Of a stretch of DNA of 64,000 nucleotides, positions 5,055 through 11,595 are shown piece by piece. The position numbers and the translations under genes were made by a program. Origin of the DNA: Candidatus Gastranaerophilales bacterium (GTDB taxonomy: Bacteria; Cyanobacteriota; Vampirovibrionia; Gastranaerophilales; Gastranaerophilaceae); assembly GCA_028694425.1 (NCBI GenBank), contig JAQVKX010000001.1, positions 841 through 64,840 on the forward strand. Direction: 5' to 3'. Under the pieces are notes generated by a model, which was not told where the DNA came from, did not search any database, and saw only the letters and a list, made by a program, of their open reading frames with translations. Each line of letters opens with the position of its first letter. Within the stretch, counting starts at the first letter, position 1.

Positions 5055-5306
5055 AGGGAAAAGGTAAAAGGGAAAGTGGAAAAGCCAACTCTGTTTCCTG
5101 TTTCCTATTTCCTGTTTCCTTTTAAGTGTAAGTACAAAAAAGATTATGGCAGCCAATGCCATAAAACTTTCGGCTTGTTTAATAATAATAACAAATAAAA
5201 ACTTATATGCAAGTGTTTTTTAAAAGGAGAATGGGAAATGGGAAAAGAATAAATGGGAAATTTTCATCTGACGCTTCACACTTCACTTTTGTACTTCTTC
5301 ACATTT
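5055..5306. repeat. stuttered-word repeat (SWR) cluster
   Basis: AGGGAAAAGGTAAAAGGGAAAGTGGAAAAG, CTGTTTCCTGTTTCCTATTTCCTGTTTCC, GAATGGGAAATGGGAAAAG, CGCTTCACACTTCACTTTTG. Confidence 0.8.
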
Positions 5307-5353
5307 CTTATAAAAAATATTGCAAAATCAAAAAAAAACATCATAATGTTAAT

Positions 5354-6337
5354 ATGAATCAATTTAATTTAGGTGATTTTATTAATAAATTTATTAATTA
5401 CTCTGTTCCAGGGTCTAAGAGCGGTGTATCTTCTGCACCCAATTCAAATACAACATCCGGTACTCAATTTAAATTAACAAACGAGGCTCTGAACGAAACT
5501 TTAGTAAAGAAGACCGTTGAACAACAACAAACCGGTGTTATGACTACCTTTAGTCCATCTATGCTTGCAGAATTAAAAATGAATAACCTTGCAAGTCTTG
5601 AAAGAAGCCTATACATTAAAGACTTAATGAAATTACCGAAAGAGATGGAAGAAGTCCTTGTCCTACTTCAAAATAAAGCTGTTTTAACAGAAGAAACAGC
5701 CGTCCTTTTAAGTAAGAGTATTAATTTATCTGTTTTAGCCGAATTAATCCAAAAAAGCGGTAAAGAAGCAATGAACAAACTTGTTTTGGTTATGGCAAAT
5801 GCTTCTAAACAAGGTTTAACAGATGTTTCACAGATAAAAGATGCTATTAAATTTATAAATGCAAGCGTTTCTGTTGCTTCAAAAGATAATCCAAACCAAA
5901 TTCTAAAAAGTTTTATGCTTCTTTATCTGCCTTGGCTCCCGCTACAAGAAGGCGTCGACTTTGAACTGGAGATAGAAAGTTCCCAAGGCGGCGAAGACGA
6001 TAGCGAAATTTCAATTACAATACTTATTTCCACCAGAAATTACGGCAACGTAAGGGTCACGTTAATTCTTCTTAAAGGCAATTCTATGGATATTGTAATA
6101 AATTGCTGTGAAGAATTTCCTAAAGATGAACTGCTAAAAAGAGTTAAAGCTGAAGGTAAAACGCACTCTATACAGTCAAATGTATTTTTTGAGCAAAACA
6201 TGATTAAAAATAATGACAATAAATCCTGCCAAGCTAAAATAAACATGTCCAACCTGATGGAAGTTAATCCGTTTTTGCTTTTAATGGCAAATGCCATTAT
6301 CAGATATACGATTGAGTTAGATAACTCGGCAGAATAA
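5354..6337 (+). CDS. hypothetical protein
   Basis: long open frame in AT-rich DNA; start moved to the ATG at 5354 (MNQFNLGDF...) because the 5207 ORF start lies inside repeat words. Confidence 0.5.
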   Translation: MNQFNLGDFINKFINYSVPGSKSGVSSAPNSNTTSGTQFKLTNEALNETLVKKTVEQQQTGVMTTFSPSMLAELKMNNLASLERSLYIKDLMKLPKEMEEVLVLLQNKAVLTEETAVLLSKSINLSVLAELIQKSGKEAMNKLVLVMANASKQGLTDVSQIKDAIKFINASVSVASKDNPNQILKSFMLLYLPWLPLQEGVDFELEIESSQGGEDDSEISITILISTRNYGNVRVTLILLKGNSMDIVINCCEEFPKDELLKRVKAEGKTHSIQSNVFFEQNMIKNNDNKSCQAKINMSNLMEVNPFLLLMANAIIRYTIELDNSAE

Positions 6338-6339
6338 GT

Positions 6340-6600
6340 AAGGCAAAAAGCAAAAAGTGAAGCGTGAAGCGTGAAGGGAAAAAGGGAATAGGGAACAGAA
6401 AAGAAGACAAGATGCGTAGATGCGTAGAGGCGTAGCCGAGTGACGAAGCAATCCAAGGAGCTAAAAGCAAAAAGTAAAATGTGAAATGTGAAAAGAAGTT
6501 GAACAGTCGAATAGTTGAAAAGTTTAATTAAGTGAGGCGTGAGGCGTGAAGCGAAAAGCTTGCCTTCCTGCCCTCTTGCCCTCTTGCCTTCTTTTCACAT
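6340..6600. repeat. SWR cluster (large; contains core GAAGACAAGATGCGTAGATGCGTAGAGGCGTAG at 6403-6435)
   Basis: AAAAGC, GTGAAGC, GGGAAnA, GCGTAG, GTGAAAT, GTTGAAnAG, GTGAGGC and CTTGCC(C/T)TC words, each iterated 2-4 times. Confidence 0.9.
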
Positions 6601-6601
6601 T

Positions 6602-7288
6602 TTATCCCTTTTTCCATTTTTTATATAAGTCTTTTCTGCGAAGTTTAGTTCTTTCCAAGCTTTGTTCATGGCGATGTTTAGCAATTTGGGCATGATTTCC
6701 GTTTAACAAAACCTCAGGAACTTCAAACCCCCTAAAATTCCTCGGCTTTGTATACTGCGGATATTCTAAAAGTCCGTTAGAGAAACTGTCTTCATTGGCA
6801 GATTCTATTTTACCTAAAGTTCCTTCAATTTTTCGGCTTACGCTGTCAATTATACAAAGTGCAGGCAACTCCCCACCCGTCATTACAAAATCTCCGATAG
6901 AAACCTCTTTGGGCTTAATAATATCTCTTATTCTCGCGTCATGTCCTTCGTAATGTCCGCAAATCATTATTATTTGGTTATATTTTGCAAATTCATTACA
7001 CATTTTATCGTTAAAAACTTCACCTTGCGGAGTTAACATTACTGTAAGGGAATTTTCAAGTTGTTCCACACTTTCGTATGCATCAACATAAGGCTGTGCC
7101 ATTAAAACCATACCGGCACCACCACCATAGGACGTATCATCAACTTTTTTATGCTTATCAAGGCTAAAATTCCTTGGGTTTATAGTGTTAACTTCAATGA
7201 CGTTGTTTTCAACCGCACGTTTTAAAATACTGCAACCACAGCAACTGTCAATCATTTCCGGAAATAGTGTTAAAACATCAAATTGCAT
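6602..7288 (-). CDS. trmD: tRNA (guanine37-N1)-methyltransferase
   Basis: MQFDVLTLFPEM, GGGAGMV, ICGHYEG.D.R and GDFVMTGGELPA motifs. Confidence 0.95.
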   Translation of the reverse strand: MQFDVLTLFPEMIDSCCGCSILKRAVENNVIEVNTINPRNFSLDKHKKVDDTSYGGGAGMVLMAQPYVDAYESVEQLENSLTVMLTPQGEVFNDKMCNEFAKYNQIIMICGHYEGHDARIRDIIKPKEVSIGDFVMTGGELPALCIIDSVSRKIEGTLGKIESANEDSFSNGLLEYPQYTKPRNFRGFEVPEVLLNGNHAQIAKHRHEQSLERTKLRRKDLYKKWKKG

Positions 7289-7304
7289 TTAATCCATTTA
7301 CCCC

Positions 7305-7814
7305 TCATTCAATTAAACCCTTAATATTATTTACCGTAATTTGCTTGTTTTTTATATCAACTTTAGGCACAAGTTCTTTAACAAAAGGAACGAGCGATAT
7401 TTTTTTTGTTTTGCTCCTGACTGAAATTAAGTCATTAACACCGTTGTTGGAAACTCCGATGACAATTCCAATGCTGTTACCTTCTAAATCAACAACTTCA
7501 AGTCCGGTTAATTCATCAATCAGAAATTCATCTTCGCCTAAACTCTCACGAATAACCGTTTCTTCAACAAAAATTAAACACCCTTTGTAAGGCATTAAAT
7601 CATTGATTGAGTTAATTCCCTTAAACTTAATTAATGCAAAAGTCTTGTTAAACCTAACACCCGTTATCTCAAAACGGATATAATCCGAATTATGCTTAAT
7701 ATACACTGATTTAAGTGTTTTTAAGAAATCCTGCCAGTTTTTTGAAAACCCGACTTTTGCTTCACCTTGAATTCCGTGAAAATTCAGAATTTTACCGACG
7801 GAAATATATTCCAT
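7305..7814 (-). CDS. rimM: 16S rRNA processing protein RimM
   Basis: VGKILNFHGIQGEAKV N-terminus plus PRC-barrel-like C-terminus; directly upstream of trmD. Confidence 0.9.
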   Translation of the reverse strand: MEYISVGKILNFHGIQGEAKVGFSKNWQDFLKTLKSVYIKHNSDYIRFEITGVRFNKTFALIKFKGINSINDLMPYKGCLIFVEETVIRESLGEDEFLIDELTGLEVVDLEGNSIGIVIGVSNNGVNDLISVRSKTKKISLVPFVKELVPKVDIKNKQITVNNIKGLIE

Positions 7815-7817
7815 AAA

Positions 7818-9107
7818 TTACTCTTCAGTTTCTTTAGCAGTTTTTTTACTTTTTGCTTTTGGCTTTTCGCTTTTTGCTTCTTTAGTTTCTTTTTCTTCTT
7901 TGGTTTTTTTAGCTTTTTTAGGTTCAGCTTCTTTAGCGTCTTTTTGCTTTTTGAATTCTTCAGGGGCATCTGCTCTTTCCTGATTCCATCTTTCAAGACC
8001 TAATTTGCCCCTTATAAGCCCGATACCTACGTGGACTCTCCATTCATCTATTTTTAATTGAGCCGCAATAATTTTGTGGCAACCTATCGGAGGTAAAGGA
8101 AGCAACGGTTCGTATAAATTTTGTATTGCAAACATCTGATCCGGTGAAATAGCCAATTTTCTTTTAGGGAAAGGTAATTTGGGAAGCAGCATTTTTTGTC
8201 TGATTAAGTTGATACCAAAGAAAACTTTTCTTGGCTCTAATCCGATTTTTGTGCCGATTACTTCATGTGCATCAGGATTTGGCAATGGTAACATTGTTTT
8301 GTATATTAATTCAATTTGTTCCAATTGCTCTTTACTTACTAAAAGCGGCTTATTAATACGGTTTCCTTGCGGTCTTCCGCCGCCTCTGTTAAAGCCGCCG
8401 CTTGAAGGTCTGTTATATCCGCCTTGCGGTCTGTTATAGCCACCCTGTTGCGGTCTATTGTAGCCTCCTTGTTGCGAACGCTGATATCCGCTCCTGTCTT
8501 GGTTGTAACCACCGCCTTGCGGTCTGCTGTAACCGCCCTGTTGCGGACGCTGATACCCGCCTTGTTGCGGTCTGTTATATCCACCCTGTTGCGGACGTTG
8601 ATATCCGCTCCTGTCTTGGTTGTAACCACTGCCTTGCGGTCTATTGTATCCGCCTTGTTGCGGACGTTGATAACCACCTCTATCTTGGTTGTAACCGCCC
8701 TGTTGCGGTCTGTTGTATCCGCCTTGTTGCGGACGTTGATATCCGCCCCTGTCTTGGTTGTAACCGCCCTGTTGGGGTCTGTTATATCCGCCTTGTTGCG
8801 GACGTTGATATCCGCCCCTATCTTGGTTATAAGGTCTTTGCTGAGGAGCTTCGGCAGAATAACTATTATAGAATTGCTGTTGCGAAGGTTGTTGCCCGGA
8901 TCCTTCGTTTTGTTCTTTTTGTTGACCGCCACCCGAATGATTTTCTTGTTGAAATTCTTGATTAGAATCTTCAGCTTCTCTTTCTAAATCTAAATCAGCC
9001 GATAATGCCATTTTTTTATCAGGATAAAGACAATTAGGACAAATAACTCTTTTGGGGTTTTTGGTTTCAAACTCTGAACCACACTTTGTGCACTTGTTTA
9101 CATACAT
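7818..9107 (-). CDS. zinc-ribbon protein with Q/G/Y/N/R-rich tandem repeats, duplicated C-terminal module and K/E-rich tail
   Basis: CTKCG...CPNC zinc ribbon; about 158 aa of GGY(N/Q)RPQQ repeats; two ~55-aa related modules (LPLPNPDAHEVIGTKIGL... / LPLPPIGCHKIIAAQLKI...); stop codon 3 nt from the rimM start. Confidence 0.7.
   Translation of the reverse strand: MYVNKCTKCGSEFETKNPKRVICPNCLYPDKKMALSADLDLEREAEDSNQEFQQENHSGGGQQKEQNEGSGQQPSQQQFYNSYSAEAPQQRPYNQDRGGYQRPQQGGYNRPQQGGYNQDRGGYQRPQQGGYNRPQQGGYNQDRGGYQRPQQGGYNRPQGSGYNQDRSGYQRPQQGGYNRPQQGGYQRPQQGGYSRPQGGGYNQDRSGYQRSQQGGYNRPQQGGYNRPQGGYNRPSSGGFNRGGGRPQGNRINKPLLVSKEQLEQIELIYKTMLPLPNPDAHEVIGTKIGLEPRKVFFGINLIRQKMLLPKLPFPKRKLAISPDQMFAIQNLYEPLLPLPPIGCHKIIAAQLKIDEWRVHVGIGLIRGKLGLERWNQERADAPEEFKKQKDAKEAEPKKAKKTKEEKETKEAKSEKPKAKSKKTAKETEE
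8364..8837 (-). repeat. in-frame coding tandem repeat, about 66-nt (22-aa) period
   Basis: about five copies of YNQDRGGYQRPQQGGYNRPQQGG; the DNA shows the same periodicity (CCGCCTTGTTGCGGACGTTGATATCCGC...). Confidence 0.9.
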
Positions 9108-9234
9108 AATGAAAGCCTCTTAATTAATAAAACGATTAATCGAAAAACTCCTCGTTCAACTAAAACTAAAATTATATTTCTAAATATTTTTAAATTTATA
9201 TTTCTTCCTTTTAATTTCTTCTTTTGAATATATA

Positions 9235-9263
9235 ATATACTTAAAAATAAATCTTGGCAAGTC
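9235..9263 (-). promoter_or_regulatory. candidate sigma-70 promoter for the zinc-ribbon/rimM/trmD operon
   Basis: minus strand TTGCCA-17 nt-TATTAT. Confidence 0.35.
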
Positions 9264-9304
9264 TTTTTTTAAAAAAAGTCAAAAAAATCATACCACAGTA
9301 CCAG

Positions 9305-9742
9305 TTATTTTTCTATCAAAAATGTTACCGGACCTTGATTTACAAGTAAAATATCCATCATTGCCTGAAATTTTCCCGTTTTTACTTTAAGTCCGTAATT
9401 TAAAATTGTTTTTACAAAATCTTCATATAATTTATTTGCTTTATCGGGCGGTGCTGCCTTATCAAAACTCGGGCGTGTGCCTTTTTTGCAATCACCTGCA
9501 AGTGTAAACTGTGAAACAACAAGGATTTCACCTTGAACATCAATTAAAGATTTGTTCATTTTTTCGTTTTCATCTTCAAAAATTCTTAGATTGACAAGTT
9601 TTTCTGCAAGCTTTTGGGCGTTTTGTATTTCATCTTCTTTTTCTACACCCAGAAAAATCAACATACCAAAATCGATTGACGAATAAATTTCTCCGTCAAT
9701 AGTTACAGATGCGTTTTTAACTCTTTGTATCAGTGCTTTCAT
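9305..9742 (-). CDS. dtd: D-aminoacyl-tRNA deacylase
   Basis: MKALIQRV, VVSQFTL.GD..KG.RPSF and GKFQAMM motifs. Confidence 0.93.
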   Translation of the reverse strand: MKALIQRVKNASVTIDGEIYSSIDFGMLIFLGVEKEDEIQNAQKLAEKLVNLRIFEDENEKMNKSLIDVQGEILVVSQFTLAGDCKKGTRPSFDKAAPPDKANKLYEDFVKTILNYGLKVKTGKFQAMMDILLVNQGPVTFLIEK

Positions 9743-9750
9743 GTTAGTTT

Positions 9751-9823
9751 AACAGGTGAACAGGTGAAAAGTTTAATTTTGAGATAACTGTTCACCTATT
9801 CACCTTTTCAACTGTTCACCTTT
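9751..9823. repeat. SWR cluster overlapping the rlmN 3' end
   Basis: AACAGGTGAACAGGTGAAAAG ... CTGTTCACCTATTCACCTTTTCAACTGTTCACC. Confidence 0.85.
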
Positions 9824-10839
9824 CCCGTTAATTGTCCGCAGGCTGCATCTATGTCAGCTCCGCGCTCAAGTCTTATTGTAACTTTTTTTCCGGAATGTTC
9901 AAGTATGTATTTAAACTTCATAATTGATGAAGTTGAAGGTTTTTTAAACTTACTGTCTTTAATCGGATTATAGGGAATTAAATTTACATTGCATTTTATA
10001 TCCTTAAGAAAAATTGCAGTTGATTCTGCCATTTCAATTGTATCAGTCAAATCCTTTATCAATAAATACTCTATTGTAATTCTTCTTCCGGTTTTGTTTG
10101 TGTAATTTTTTAACGCTTCTTTAAGTTCTGCAAGCGGATATTTACTTTCAACAGGTATAATTTGTTTACGAACCTCAGATACAGGAGCATGCAAAGAAAG
10201 TGCTAAAGTTGATTGCATTTCCAATTCCGCAAGTTTGTTAATTCCCGGAATAATTCCGCTTGTGGAAATCGTAATCCTTCTGGCACCGATTTGAAAATCT
10301 TCGTTAAAAATTGTTAGAGACTGTAAGACATTGTCAAGGTTTAAAAGCGGTTCGCCCTGCCCCATAAAGACAACGTTTGTAACTTTCAGCCCGGTATCTC
10401 TTTGGATTGTCAAAACCTGCTCAACTATCTCTGCTGCGGTTAAGTTTCTTACAAAACCTCTTTTGCCGGTAGCACAGAATGAGCAATTGATTGCACATCC
10501 GACCTGAGAACTTACGCAAGCGGTTAAATTTGTACGGTTATCAAACCTCATAAGCACAGTTTCAACACAATTTCCGTCAGGATATCCGATTAAATATTTA
10601 ATCGTTCCGTCTTCGGAAACCTGCTTTGTTTTTACCGTAACATCAGAAACTTGTGCAATTTCAGACAATTTTTCCCTGAAATCCTTCGACAAATCAGTCA
10701 TTTCATCAATGGATTTTACCGATTTAAGATAAATCCAGTTATGAATTTGTCTTGCTCTGAATTTGGAAGCTTTCAAATCCTGTGCAATTTTTTCAAAATC
10801 TTGTTGAATCAGTCCTGACAGTATAATTTTCTTACTCAT
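9808..10839 (-). CDS. rlmN: 23S rRNA/tRNA adenine-C2 methyltransferase (radical SAM)
   Basis: CVSSQVGCAINCSFCATG radical-SAM motif, GMGEP-like FMGQGEPL, C-terminal ACGQL. Confidence 0.93.
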   Translation of the reverse strand: MSKKIILSGLIQQDFEKIAQDLKASKFRARQIHNWIYLKSVKSIDEMTDLSKDFREKLSEIAQVSDVTVKTKQVSEDGTIKYLIGYPDGNCVETVLMRFDNRTNLTACVSSQVGCAINCSFCATGKRGFVRNLTAAEIVEQVLTIQRDTGLKVTNVVFMGQGEPLLNLDNVLQSLTIFNEDFQIGARRITISTSGIIPGINKLAELEMQSTLALSLHAPVSEVRKQIIPVESKYPLAELKEALKNYTNKTGRRITIEYLLIKDLTDTIEMAESTAIFLKDIKCNVNLIPYNPIKDSKFKKPSTSSIMKFKYILEHSGKKVTIRLERGADIDAACGQLTGKVNS

Positions 10840-10856
10840 GATGAAATTATAGCAGA

Positions 10857-11082
10857 AAAGTAAATAGTGAATAGTGAATGGTGAATGGGAAACAGAAAAG
10901 AAGACAAGATGCGTAGAGGCGTAGAGGCGTGGAGTAAAATACTAAAAAACTTTTCAACTCTTCAGTCTTTCAACTTTTTACCTTATAAACAAAAGCATTT
11001 TTTATTTAAAAACTACGCATCTACGCATCTTGTCTTCTTGTCATCTCTCTAATTCTTTTCCCCTTTACCTTTTCCCTCTTTA
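10857..11082. repeat. SWR cluster with two core copies in opposite orientation
   Basis: GAAGACAAGATGCGTAGAGGCGTAGAGGCGTGGAG at 10900-10934 and CTACGCATCTACGCATCTTGTCTTC at 11013-11037. Confidence 0.9.
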
Positions 11083-11595
11083 AGCCGTTTTTATTGTGGG
11101 CTGGACAAATATTCTTGCCGCTAAATCCTTATCAAGCAAGTAAAGAGCACTCTTATCATCACCGATTAATTTTAGTTTAGAGATAATATCCTGTGCGTTA
11201 GCTTCTTCTTCGACTTGTTCATCCACAAACCAGTTCATATAAGACATTGTAGCTCTGTCTTTTACTTCTTCCGCAATTGTTACAATGTTATTAATCAAGC
11301 TTGTCACATAAATTTCATGCTTAAGAACTTCTTCCATAACATTAAGCGGATTTTTCCAACGGTTAGGCGGTGCATCAATCGGAGTTAAAATAACTCTTTC
11401 ACCCCTGTCAATCAAAAAGTCATATATAAGCATTGCATGAGCCGTTTCTTCTTGTGCTTGAACTCTCATCCAGTTTGCAAAACCAAGCAAACCCAAATCA
11501 GAAAAGTAAGCGGACATTGACAAATACAAATATGCCGAATATAATTCCTTATTTACCTGTTCAATAAGAATTTTTCCTACTTTTTCATTAATCAT
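11080..11595 (-). CDS. ftn: non-heme ferritin
   Basis: NKELYSAYLYLSMSAYF and QAQEETAHAM ferroxidase-site pattern. Confidence 0.9.
   Translation of the reverse strand: MINEKVGKILIEQVNKELYSAYLYLSMSAYFSDLGLLGFANWMRVQAQEETAHAMLIYDFLIDRGERVILTPIDAPPNRWKNPLNVMEEVLKHEIYVTSLINNIVTIAEEVKDRATMSYMNWFVDEQVEEEANAQDIISKLKLIGDDKSALYLLDKDLAARIFVQPTIKTA

Follow-up and report, generated by a model that had tools for sequence, protein, structure and literature searches.

The low-complexity Tyr/Arg/Gly/Gln regions of FUS-like proteins have been described as having a 'sticker-spacer' pattern, and the oligopeptide repeats of Sup35 form another system of interest here. Among bacterial proteins, the Gly/Gln/Pro linker of Escherichia coli SSB and the Rho factor of Bacteroides offer further examples of functional disordered or prion-like regions. 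At the level of folded domains, MqsA-type antitoxins consist of an N-terminal zinc ribbon and a C-terminal helix-turn-helix (HTH), and the domains of sigma region 4 and of the LuxR type usually have four helices. A prion-like domain has been reported in the Rho factor of Clostridium botulinum (PMC4703818; surveyed in PMC6400439). The subject of the present work is a 429-aa gene that shares features with these systems and lies at the head of rimM-trmD in a 64,000-nucleotide stretch (hereafter the window) of contig JAQVKX010000001.1 from Candidatus Gastranaerophilales bacterium (assembly GCA_028694425.1), a Melainabacterium of the gut. Its product joins a zinc ribbon, an Arg/Tyr/Gly-rich disordered region and two HTH modules, a combination that makes DNA binding likelier than ribosome assembly. 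It is quite possible, and is proposed here tentatively, that the product is abundant and binds DNA multivalently, as a nucleoid-associated protein or as a global transcription factor, and that it might condense or bridge DNA through its Arg/Tyr-rich linker.

Two Duplicated Modules with a Predicted Helix-Turn-Helix Fold

The structure of the protein was predicted with AlphaFold2 (AF2), using 32 orthologues in the alignment for the full-length model. In this model the C-terminal part folds into two three-helix units (residues 259-305 and 322-369) with predicted local distance difference test (pLDDT) values of 86-91, and a separate model of the C-terminal domain alone agrees with it (pLDDT 80). 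Both units are predicted to be three-helix bundles with HTH geometry, and each module bears a net charge of +2. The existence of two related C-terminal modules had already been noticed in a preliminary description of this DNA, and their homology was confirmed by hhalign (probability 98.7%, E 3.5e-16, 37% identity), a match that points to an internal duplication. Module 2 of the window protein is in turn matched to module 2 of Chloroflexota relatives with an hhalign probability of 99.8%.

Comparison of both AF2 models with the PDB by Foldseek gave nothing below E 0.001. The two-module matches obtained with both models were the DUX4 double homeodomain (E 0.08-0.2), tandem engrailed and POU domains, and the single-module matches were NarL, DosR, GerE and homeodomains, with template modelling (TM) scores on the target of 0.5-0.66 and E >0.07; the NarL, DosR and GerE matches are DNA complexes. 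Under relaxed Pfam settings, Homeodomain was recognised below threshold on module 1 of four orthologues (E 0.002-0.2), the best of which reached 18.2 bits (E 0.002) and not the gathering score of PF00046 (22.9 bits). The Chloroflexota relative P0448, by contrast, exceeds the Pfam cut-offs for Sigma70_r4_2 (27.7 versus 25.7 bits) on the HTH core of module 2 and for Sigma70_r4 (26.5 versus 24.1 bits) on that of module 1, and P0446 falls 0.1 bit short of HTH_23 (24.5 versus 24.6 bits). A PADLOC scan returned no match. As modelled, the modules are HTH units outside any named family. Their place in the tri-helical HTH class of DNA-binding domains goes against the ribosome- or RNA-associated role first suggested for the protein, and the preliminary description had itself named such an outcome as contradicting that role.

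The sigma-like matches also bear on a different explanation, according to which the protein would be an RNA-polymerase-associated general transcription factor whose ribbon docks on the polymerase and whose sigma-region-4-like modules contact the promoter or the beta flap. In its favour, besides the relative that matches Sigma70_r4 and Sigma70_r4_2, ribbon and modules are conserved to the extreme degree expected for contact with a conserved machine, zinc ribbons are common as RNA-polymerase-binding elements, and some relatives carry the automatic Joint Genome Institute (JGI) name 'RPC12/RpoP'. However, these names are generic zinc-ribbon calls, the protein contains nothing like sigma region 2, linkage to rpo genes was seen in none of the inspected loci, and the patchy taxonomic distribution described below argues against a core role in transcription, all of which makes this explanation improbable.

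An Arg/Tyr-Rich Disordered Region with Conserved Composition

Residues 35-252, which separate the two folded parts, are predicted to be disordered (pLDDT <50 in the full-length model). Most of this segment is built of 8-aa units, (N/Q)RPQQGGY, grouped as super-units of 23 aa (69 nt). Tandem Repeats Finder (TRF) detected a 69-nt period with 4.0 copies and 86% match at 8557-8832, together with a nested 24-nt (8-aa) period of 16.9 copies at 8424-8817; the 23-aa unit proposed earlier therefore stands, and the DNA period of 66 nt given with it has to be corrected to 69 nt. Residues 86-245 are composed of 25% G, 22% Q, 14% R and 12% Y. A single PHROG match was rejected as compositional, as it falls on this low-complexity tract.

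The repeat units differ from one another at 39 synonymous versus 12 nonsynonymous codons, an excess which indicates that the peptide repeat is under purifying selection. In addition, the longest exact DNA repeat within the tract is only 35 nt, so that assembly collapse is unlikely. Repeat tracts are error-prone in short-read metagenome-assembled genomes, and an assembly or annotation artefact, with the tract collapsed, expanded or untranslated, had to be contemplated on that account. It is hardly credible given the shortness of the exact repeats and the predominance of synonymous differences, and also because more than 400 independent assemblies, the hifiasm chromosome L076 among them, preserve the reading frame and an equal architecture is present in a second phylum.

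Across orthologues the disordered region varies in length from 85 to 243 residues and the unit types differ among lineages (QGGYNRPQ, GGYSSGGYQQRNN, GGYGPPRQQ and NNNR). In 85 orthologues, Arg (9-15.7%), Tyr (4.3-12.3%) and net charge (+9 to +24) are kept within narrow ranges, whereas Gly (7-47%), Asn (0-25%), Pro (2-35%) and Gln (4.5-22%) drift with genomic GC content. A split of this kind would be anticipated if function resided in Tyr and Arg and the other residues served as spacers. The region can be regarded, on the strength of the models, as a prion-like or RGG-like segment, that is, a long disordered stretch enriched in G, Q/N, Y and R whose composition is conserved across orthologues. 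The resemblance to FUS and RGG proteins pointed out in the preliminary description is strengthened by the conservation of Arg, Tyr and positive charge against a background of drifting spacers.

A hypervariable repeat number, which had also been anticipated, was not borne out. Protein length ranges from 249 to 483 aa between species and is constant inside clusters of 90% identity: four such clusters have essentially one length each, and an identical protein was found on more than 100 contigs. Length thus differs between species and is stable within them. A separate observation concerns the loci L024 and L034 of two closely related species, whose proteins (434 and 448 aa) have near-identical ribbons and modules and differ in the placement of QDR-containing and QDR-less units, which reveals shuffling of repeat units between species.

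The Zinc Ribbon, the Acidic Linker and the Tail

The order of parts recognised initially, namely a CxxC...CxxC ribbon, repeats, two modules and a K/E-rich tail, was recovered in full, and an acidic linker was resolved as a fifth part. Residues 1-30 are modelled with pLDDT 89-94 as two beta hairpins (strands 2-5 and 12-15) bearing the knuckles C6-x2-C9 and C23-x2-C26, and none of the four cysteines varies among the 32 aligned orthologues. The predicted structure thus has the two CxxC knuckles on beta hairpins that mark a C4 zinc ribbon. This part is nearly invariant within the family, and its FETKNPKR segment is invariant across the orders of Vampirovibrionia. Pfam zinc-ribbon models match the ribbon of relatives at sub-threshold scores only.

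Within the otherwise unconserved acidic linker, the motif FY(N/S)SYS stands out, with Y80 conserved in at least 90% of cases, and may represent a short linear binding motif. In the tail, AF2 predicts a short helix at residues 383-393 and the remainder is of low confidence. An AT-hook-like motif (KRGRKPK or RGRP) is present in the tail of 61 of 80 Gastranaerophilaceae orthologues, and four of ten orthologues from other orders have it in the canonical RGRP form; the strict RGRP core occurs in eight of the 80.

Constraint and Codon Usage

The strength of selection was assessed from identities to the window proteins over 80 Gastranaerophilaceae loci (Table 1). The C-terminal domain surpasses TrmD in identity in 78 of 78 loci, and purifying selection acts more strongly on the gene than on the housekeeping genes around it. 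The codon adaptation index (CAI) was calculated with 17 ribosomal-protein and elongation-factor genes from the source genome as the reference set. The non-repeat parts score 0.706, at the 95.6th percentile of 1,535 open reading frames (ORFs) and next to a ribosomal-protein median of 0.693, and rimM and trmD lie at the 34th and 38th percentiles; with so few reference genes the index is noisy, and dtd reaches the 99th percentile. Because of this ribosomal-like codon usage and of a translation-initiation region conserved across genera, the sequence suggests that the protein is abundant.

These data are relevant to whether the protein could be an ordinary sequence-specific repressor or activator of its own operon (rimM-trmD) or of a small regulon, in which the disorder would be tolerated filler. 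The two HTH modules, the operon-leading place and the conserved upstream region would all suit such a regulator. Proteins of this kind usually evolve faster than housekeeping enzymes, however, and the reverse is seen in all the loci compared; the codon usage suggests abundance; the conservation of Arg, Tyr and net charge across orders is not that of filler; and the protein has been retained while its genomic context changed between lineages. A local regulator is accordingly quite improbable.

Family Distribution and Linkage to rimM-trmD

Searches with the C-terminal 136 residues retrieved at least 1,799 proteins, all of them unnamed; the best 120 matches show 85-93% identity and are 249-455 aa long. 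The family is encoded in more than 434 species genomes. In a class-level sample of 401 genomes, the gene was present in every Gastranaerophilaceae genome and in a second family of the order, and about half of the Vampirovibrionia genera lacked it; it was also found in four further Vampirovibrionia families (E 1e-52 to 1e-72). In the rest of the cyanobacterial phylum, photosynthetic members included, none of about 165 sampled genomes carried it. An exhaustive profile search of 1.84 billion representatives yielded only 94 clusters, the weaker of which are Chloroflexota/Ktedonobacteria proteins with a ribbon, a Pro/Ala/Gly/Arg-rich linker and two modules. Neither Pfam nor NCBIfam provides a model for the family, its members are uncharacterised, and no paper on a zinc-ribbon/double-HTH family was found in the literature. 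Its building blocks (zinc ribbon, HTH and low-complexity region) are of known kinds; the combined architecture is undescribed, and the same is true of its conservation in two phyla and of the clean sticker/spacer evolution of its linker.

The order gene-rimM-trmD is kept in 79 of 80 Gastranaerophilaceae loci, and the median distance from the stop codon of the gene to rimM over these 79 loci is 5 nt, a gap that implies co-transcription and probably translational coupling. In the sole exception (L067:74-847) neither rimM nor trmD was found downstream, and the protein, with 258 aa, is among the shortest complete ones. Outside this family the linkage is absent: it was seen neither in the sister family within the order, nor in other Vampirovibrionia orders, nor in five Chloroflexota contexts. 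Since it is confined to one family, the linkage is a trait of gene order in that lineage and not of the protein family. It is lineage-specific and provides no evidence for a ribosomal function, and the role in ribosome or RNA biology that had been read from synteny is not supported, as linkage to ribosome-biogenesis genes does not extend to lineages other than Gastranaerophilaceae. No neighbour conserved across orders or phyla was found in the inspected loci. Three Vampirovibrionia loci have serine dehydratase genes nearby. Among the distant homologues, two Chloroflexota loci (L122:5933-6940 and L123:6359-7090) have a MeaB-type GTPase gene after the homologue and two Ktedonobacteria loci have a HIT-family gene in that place; neither arrangement is general.

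The linkage is central to the explanation that the protein is an RNA-binding factor for ribosome biogenesis or translation, which would bind rRNA or tRNA by means of its Arg/Gly/Tyr region and helical modules and act with RimM and TrmD, possibly in a condensate. This would fit the tight coupling to rimM-trmD, the presence of dtd and rlmN upstream, the leading position in an operon whose usual partners rpsP and rplS sit elsewhere in the genome, the RGG-like composition of the disordered region, the RNA-bound SelB-type tandem helical domains among the fold matches and a codon usage like that of ribosomal-protein genes. On the other side, neither the sister family nor the four other Vampirovibrionia families nor Chloroflexota show the linkage; the absence of the protein from half of the Vampirovibrionia genera and from every genome sampled in the rest of the phylum is unlike a core factor; the modules of relatives match DNA-binding HTH profiles; and most orthologues have an AT-hook-like tail. 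A ribosomal role is consequently considered unlikely, though by no means negligible.

A Proposed Model for Multivalent DNA Binding

According to the reading as an abundant DNA-binding protein, the two HTH modules would lie side by side on DNA, in the manner of double homeodomains or POU domains, and additional, non-specific contacts to an AT-rich genome (GC content of the window, 34%) would come from the Arg-rich linker and from the tail, whether Lys-rich or of the AT-hook type. The Tyr and Arg 'stickers' of the linker could mediate weak multivalent self-association, leading to bridging or condensation of DNA, and the invariant zinc ribbon may touch nucleic acid or a conserved partner such as RNA polymerase. 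Because the gene leads the rimM-trmD operon in Gastranaerophilaceae, its expression is tied there to that of translation genes.

Several points weigh against a DNA-binding role. As to the fold, no Foldseek match of the window protein is significant (best E only 0.08, TM 0.3-0.36), and SelB winged helices bound to SECIS RNA are among the top matches; tandem winged-helix/HTH domains can bind RNA, and Arg/Gly/Tyr-rich regions are classically RNA-binding. As to sequence, the window protein has no Pfam match (E <= 0.01) and no NCBIfam match, and a sequence-profile search of the PDB gave no match to it even at E <= 10. The AT-hook-like motif is missing in the window copy, where the tail is simply Lys-rich (KKAKK-type), and none of the 191 Chloroflexota relatives examined carries it. 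The short distance to rimM and the noise of the codon index belong on the same side, as does the presence of HU in two copies in the source genome, which leaves no vacant niche for a nucleoid protein. A replacement of HU was ruled out for the same reason.

A more far-reaching version of the DNA-binding proposal, rather unlikely as it stands, is that the protein is a bacterial counterpart of the eukaryotic low-complexity chromatin or transcription proteins and would, by condensation, organise the AT-rich nucleoid or transcription hubs in Melainabacteria and Ktedonobacteria. In such a scheme a single polypeptide, conserved and highly expressed, would unite a tandem homeodomain-like DNA-binding unit, often with an AT-hook tail, and FUS-like Tyr/Arg stickers, and RNA polymerase or some other conserved partner would be recruited by its ribbon.

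The Gene and Its Locus

The features of the gene and of its surroundings are collected in Table 1.

Table 1. Features of the 429-aa gene and its neighbours in the window, with median identities to the window proteins over 80 Gastranaerophilaceae loci.
Feature	Position	Strand	Median identity	Basis and remarks
Whole coding sequence, 429 aa + TAA stop (protein P0001)	7818..9107	(-)		ORF translation; predicted 48.6 kDa, pI 9.6
N-terminal C4 zinc ribbon, residues 1-32 (MYVNKCTKCGSEFETKNPKRVICPNCLYPDKK)	9012..9107	(-)	83%	AF2, conservation; net charge +4
Acidic Q-rich disordered linker, residues 33-90	8838..9011	(-)		pLDDT <50; net charge -9
FYNSYS motif, residues 78-83	8859-8876	(-)		Within acidic linker; kept across Gastranaerophilaceae
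Arg/Tyr/Gly/Gln-rich repeat region, residues 91-250	8358..8837	(-)		TRF, unit parsing, pLDDT 31-42; net charge +18
HTH module 1, residues 254-312	8172..8348	(-)		AF2, Foldseek; helices 259-271, 280-288, 292-305
HTH module 2, residues 316-372	7992..8162	(-)		AF2, hhalign; helices 322-335, 343-351, 355-369
C-terminal domain			88%	
RWNxxRxDxPEEF motif and K/E-rich tail, residues 373-429	7821..7991	(-)		Motif conserved; net charge +5
rimM	7305..7814	(-)	62%	NCBIfam TIGR02273, E 3e-37; directly 3' of the 429-aa gene
trmD	6602..7288	(-)	73%	NCBIfam TIGR00088, E 2.8e-92; after rimM, same strand
dtd (D-aminoacyl-tRNA deacylase)	9305..9742	(-)	71%	NCBIfam TIGR00256, E 9.5e-60; upstream neighbour
rlmN (RlmN)			75%	Pfam/NCBIfam; upstream
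Sigma-70-like promoter candidate, TTGCCA-17-TATTAT	9232..9260	(-)		Consensus scan, 10/12 positions; pattern match only
Conserved translation-initiation region: U-rich tract, AATTAAGAGGCTTTCATT, ATG	9108..9135	(-)		Sequence and orthologue comparison

The ORF coordinates confirm the 3-nt spacing to rimM that had been reported, with the TAA stop at 7818-7820 and the ATG of rimM at 7814. On the other side, a spacer of 197 nt that contains the promoter candidate separates the gene from dtd, and close relatives have TTGCCA...TATAAT at the equivalent place. A Shine-Dalgarno sequence, AAGAGG, is located at 9116-9121, 8 nt ahead of the start codon. Comparison of 75 orthologous upstream regions showed that a consensus in the 25-30 nt preceding the start codon is kept across genera; the upstream regions of dtd and rimM, compared as controls, gave no consensus. 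The conserved upstream region could act as an enhancer of translation or as a site of autoregulation. In close relatives, a ACGAGGAG box is found about 50 nt upstream of the gene and adjoins the palindrome CGATTAATCG. An Rfam scan of 6300-11200 detected no leader RNA and gave only sub-threshold miRNA-like matches on intergenic hairpin repeats; those to plant miRNA precursors, at 10877-11057, correspond to a long intergenic hairpin between rlmN and a ferritin gene.

The gene takes the head of rimM-trmD, as had been noted, and rpsP and rplS lie on other contigs of the source genome (C201 and C8, respectively), unlinked to rimM-trmD. Of the classical rpsP-(KH)-rimM-trmD-rplS operon, only rimM-trmD is linked, with the 429-aa gene in front of it. 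The solitary rpsP (L001:1156-1716, (-) strand) encodes an S16 protein of 186 aa whose C terminus is extended by about 100 residues rich in K, E and A, a further case in this genome of a nucleic-acid-binding protein with a highly charged tail. For a 376-aa ORF at 5207-6337, which lies on the (+) strand and converges on trmD, no match was obtained in Pfam, NCBIfam or PHROG.

Significance

The Melainabacteria (Vampirovibrionia) are the closest non-photosynthetic relatives of the cyanobacteria and commonly inhabit the guts of humans and animals; to our knowledge, almost none of them have been cultured. The protein described here is more conserved in Gastranaerophilaceae than TrmD or RlmN, and it has no name and no studied relative. 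If it were an organiser of the nucleoid or of transcription, it would represent a major unknown in the cell biology of two phyla, and nature would have supplied a clean bacterial test case for the Tyr/Arg 'sticker-spacer' grammar, as the spacers shift from Asn/Gln to Pro/Gly with genomic GC content and stickers and charge stay constant. If the protein bound rRNA instead, an assembly factor of a new kind would have come to light.

Comparison with Known Systems

The arrangement of two three-helix modules of about 55 residues joined by a short flexible linker is shared with the DUX4 double homeodomain (PDB 7dw5 and 6e8c), POU domains and tandem engrailed. The matches to them are non-significant (E >=0.08, TM 0.30-0.36, 16-18% identity), and, unlike double homeodomains, the unit found here is bacterial, derives from an internal duplication and shares its chain with a zinc ribbon and a long disordered stretch rich in Arg and Tyr, its DNA binding being predicted. 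A likeness to sigma-70 region 4 and to the HTH of the LuxR, GerE and NarL type is suggested by the Pfam matches of P0448 and by the single-module fold matches; in contrast to those proteins, the window protein lacks sigma regions 2 and 3 as well as a receiver domain, and its modules are predicted to have three helices. The order ribbon-then-HTH recalls MqsA, from which the protein differs in having two HTH modules, a disordered linker of 220 residues, no gene for a toxin partner and no detectable sequence similarity. As for the HMGA-type AT-hook, its equivalent reads EKPKRGRKPKK in the 61 Gastranaerophilaceae orthologues mentioned above and takes the form KKRGRPKK in other orders; no more than eight of the 80 have the canonical RGRP core, and the window copy has its Lys-rich tail in place of it.

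The disordered region resembles the FUS family in the regular spacing of GGY and R and in the combination of conserved aromatic and Arg residues with drifting spacers. Compared with FUS and Sup35, it is strongly positive (+18), unlike the uncharged prion domains, it is not accompanied by an RNA-recognition motif (RRM), and it belongs to a bacterium. With Rho and SSB it has in common that a bacterial nucleic-acid binder, here a predicted one, carries a long N/Q/G-rich segment in which composition is kept and sequence is not. It departs from both in that the folded parts are a ribbon and a double HTH, and in that the region is Arg/Tyr-rich, basic and situated between them.

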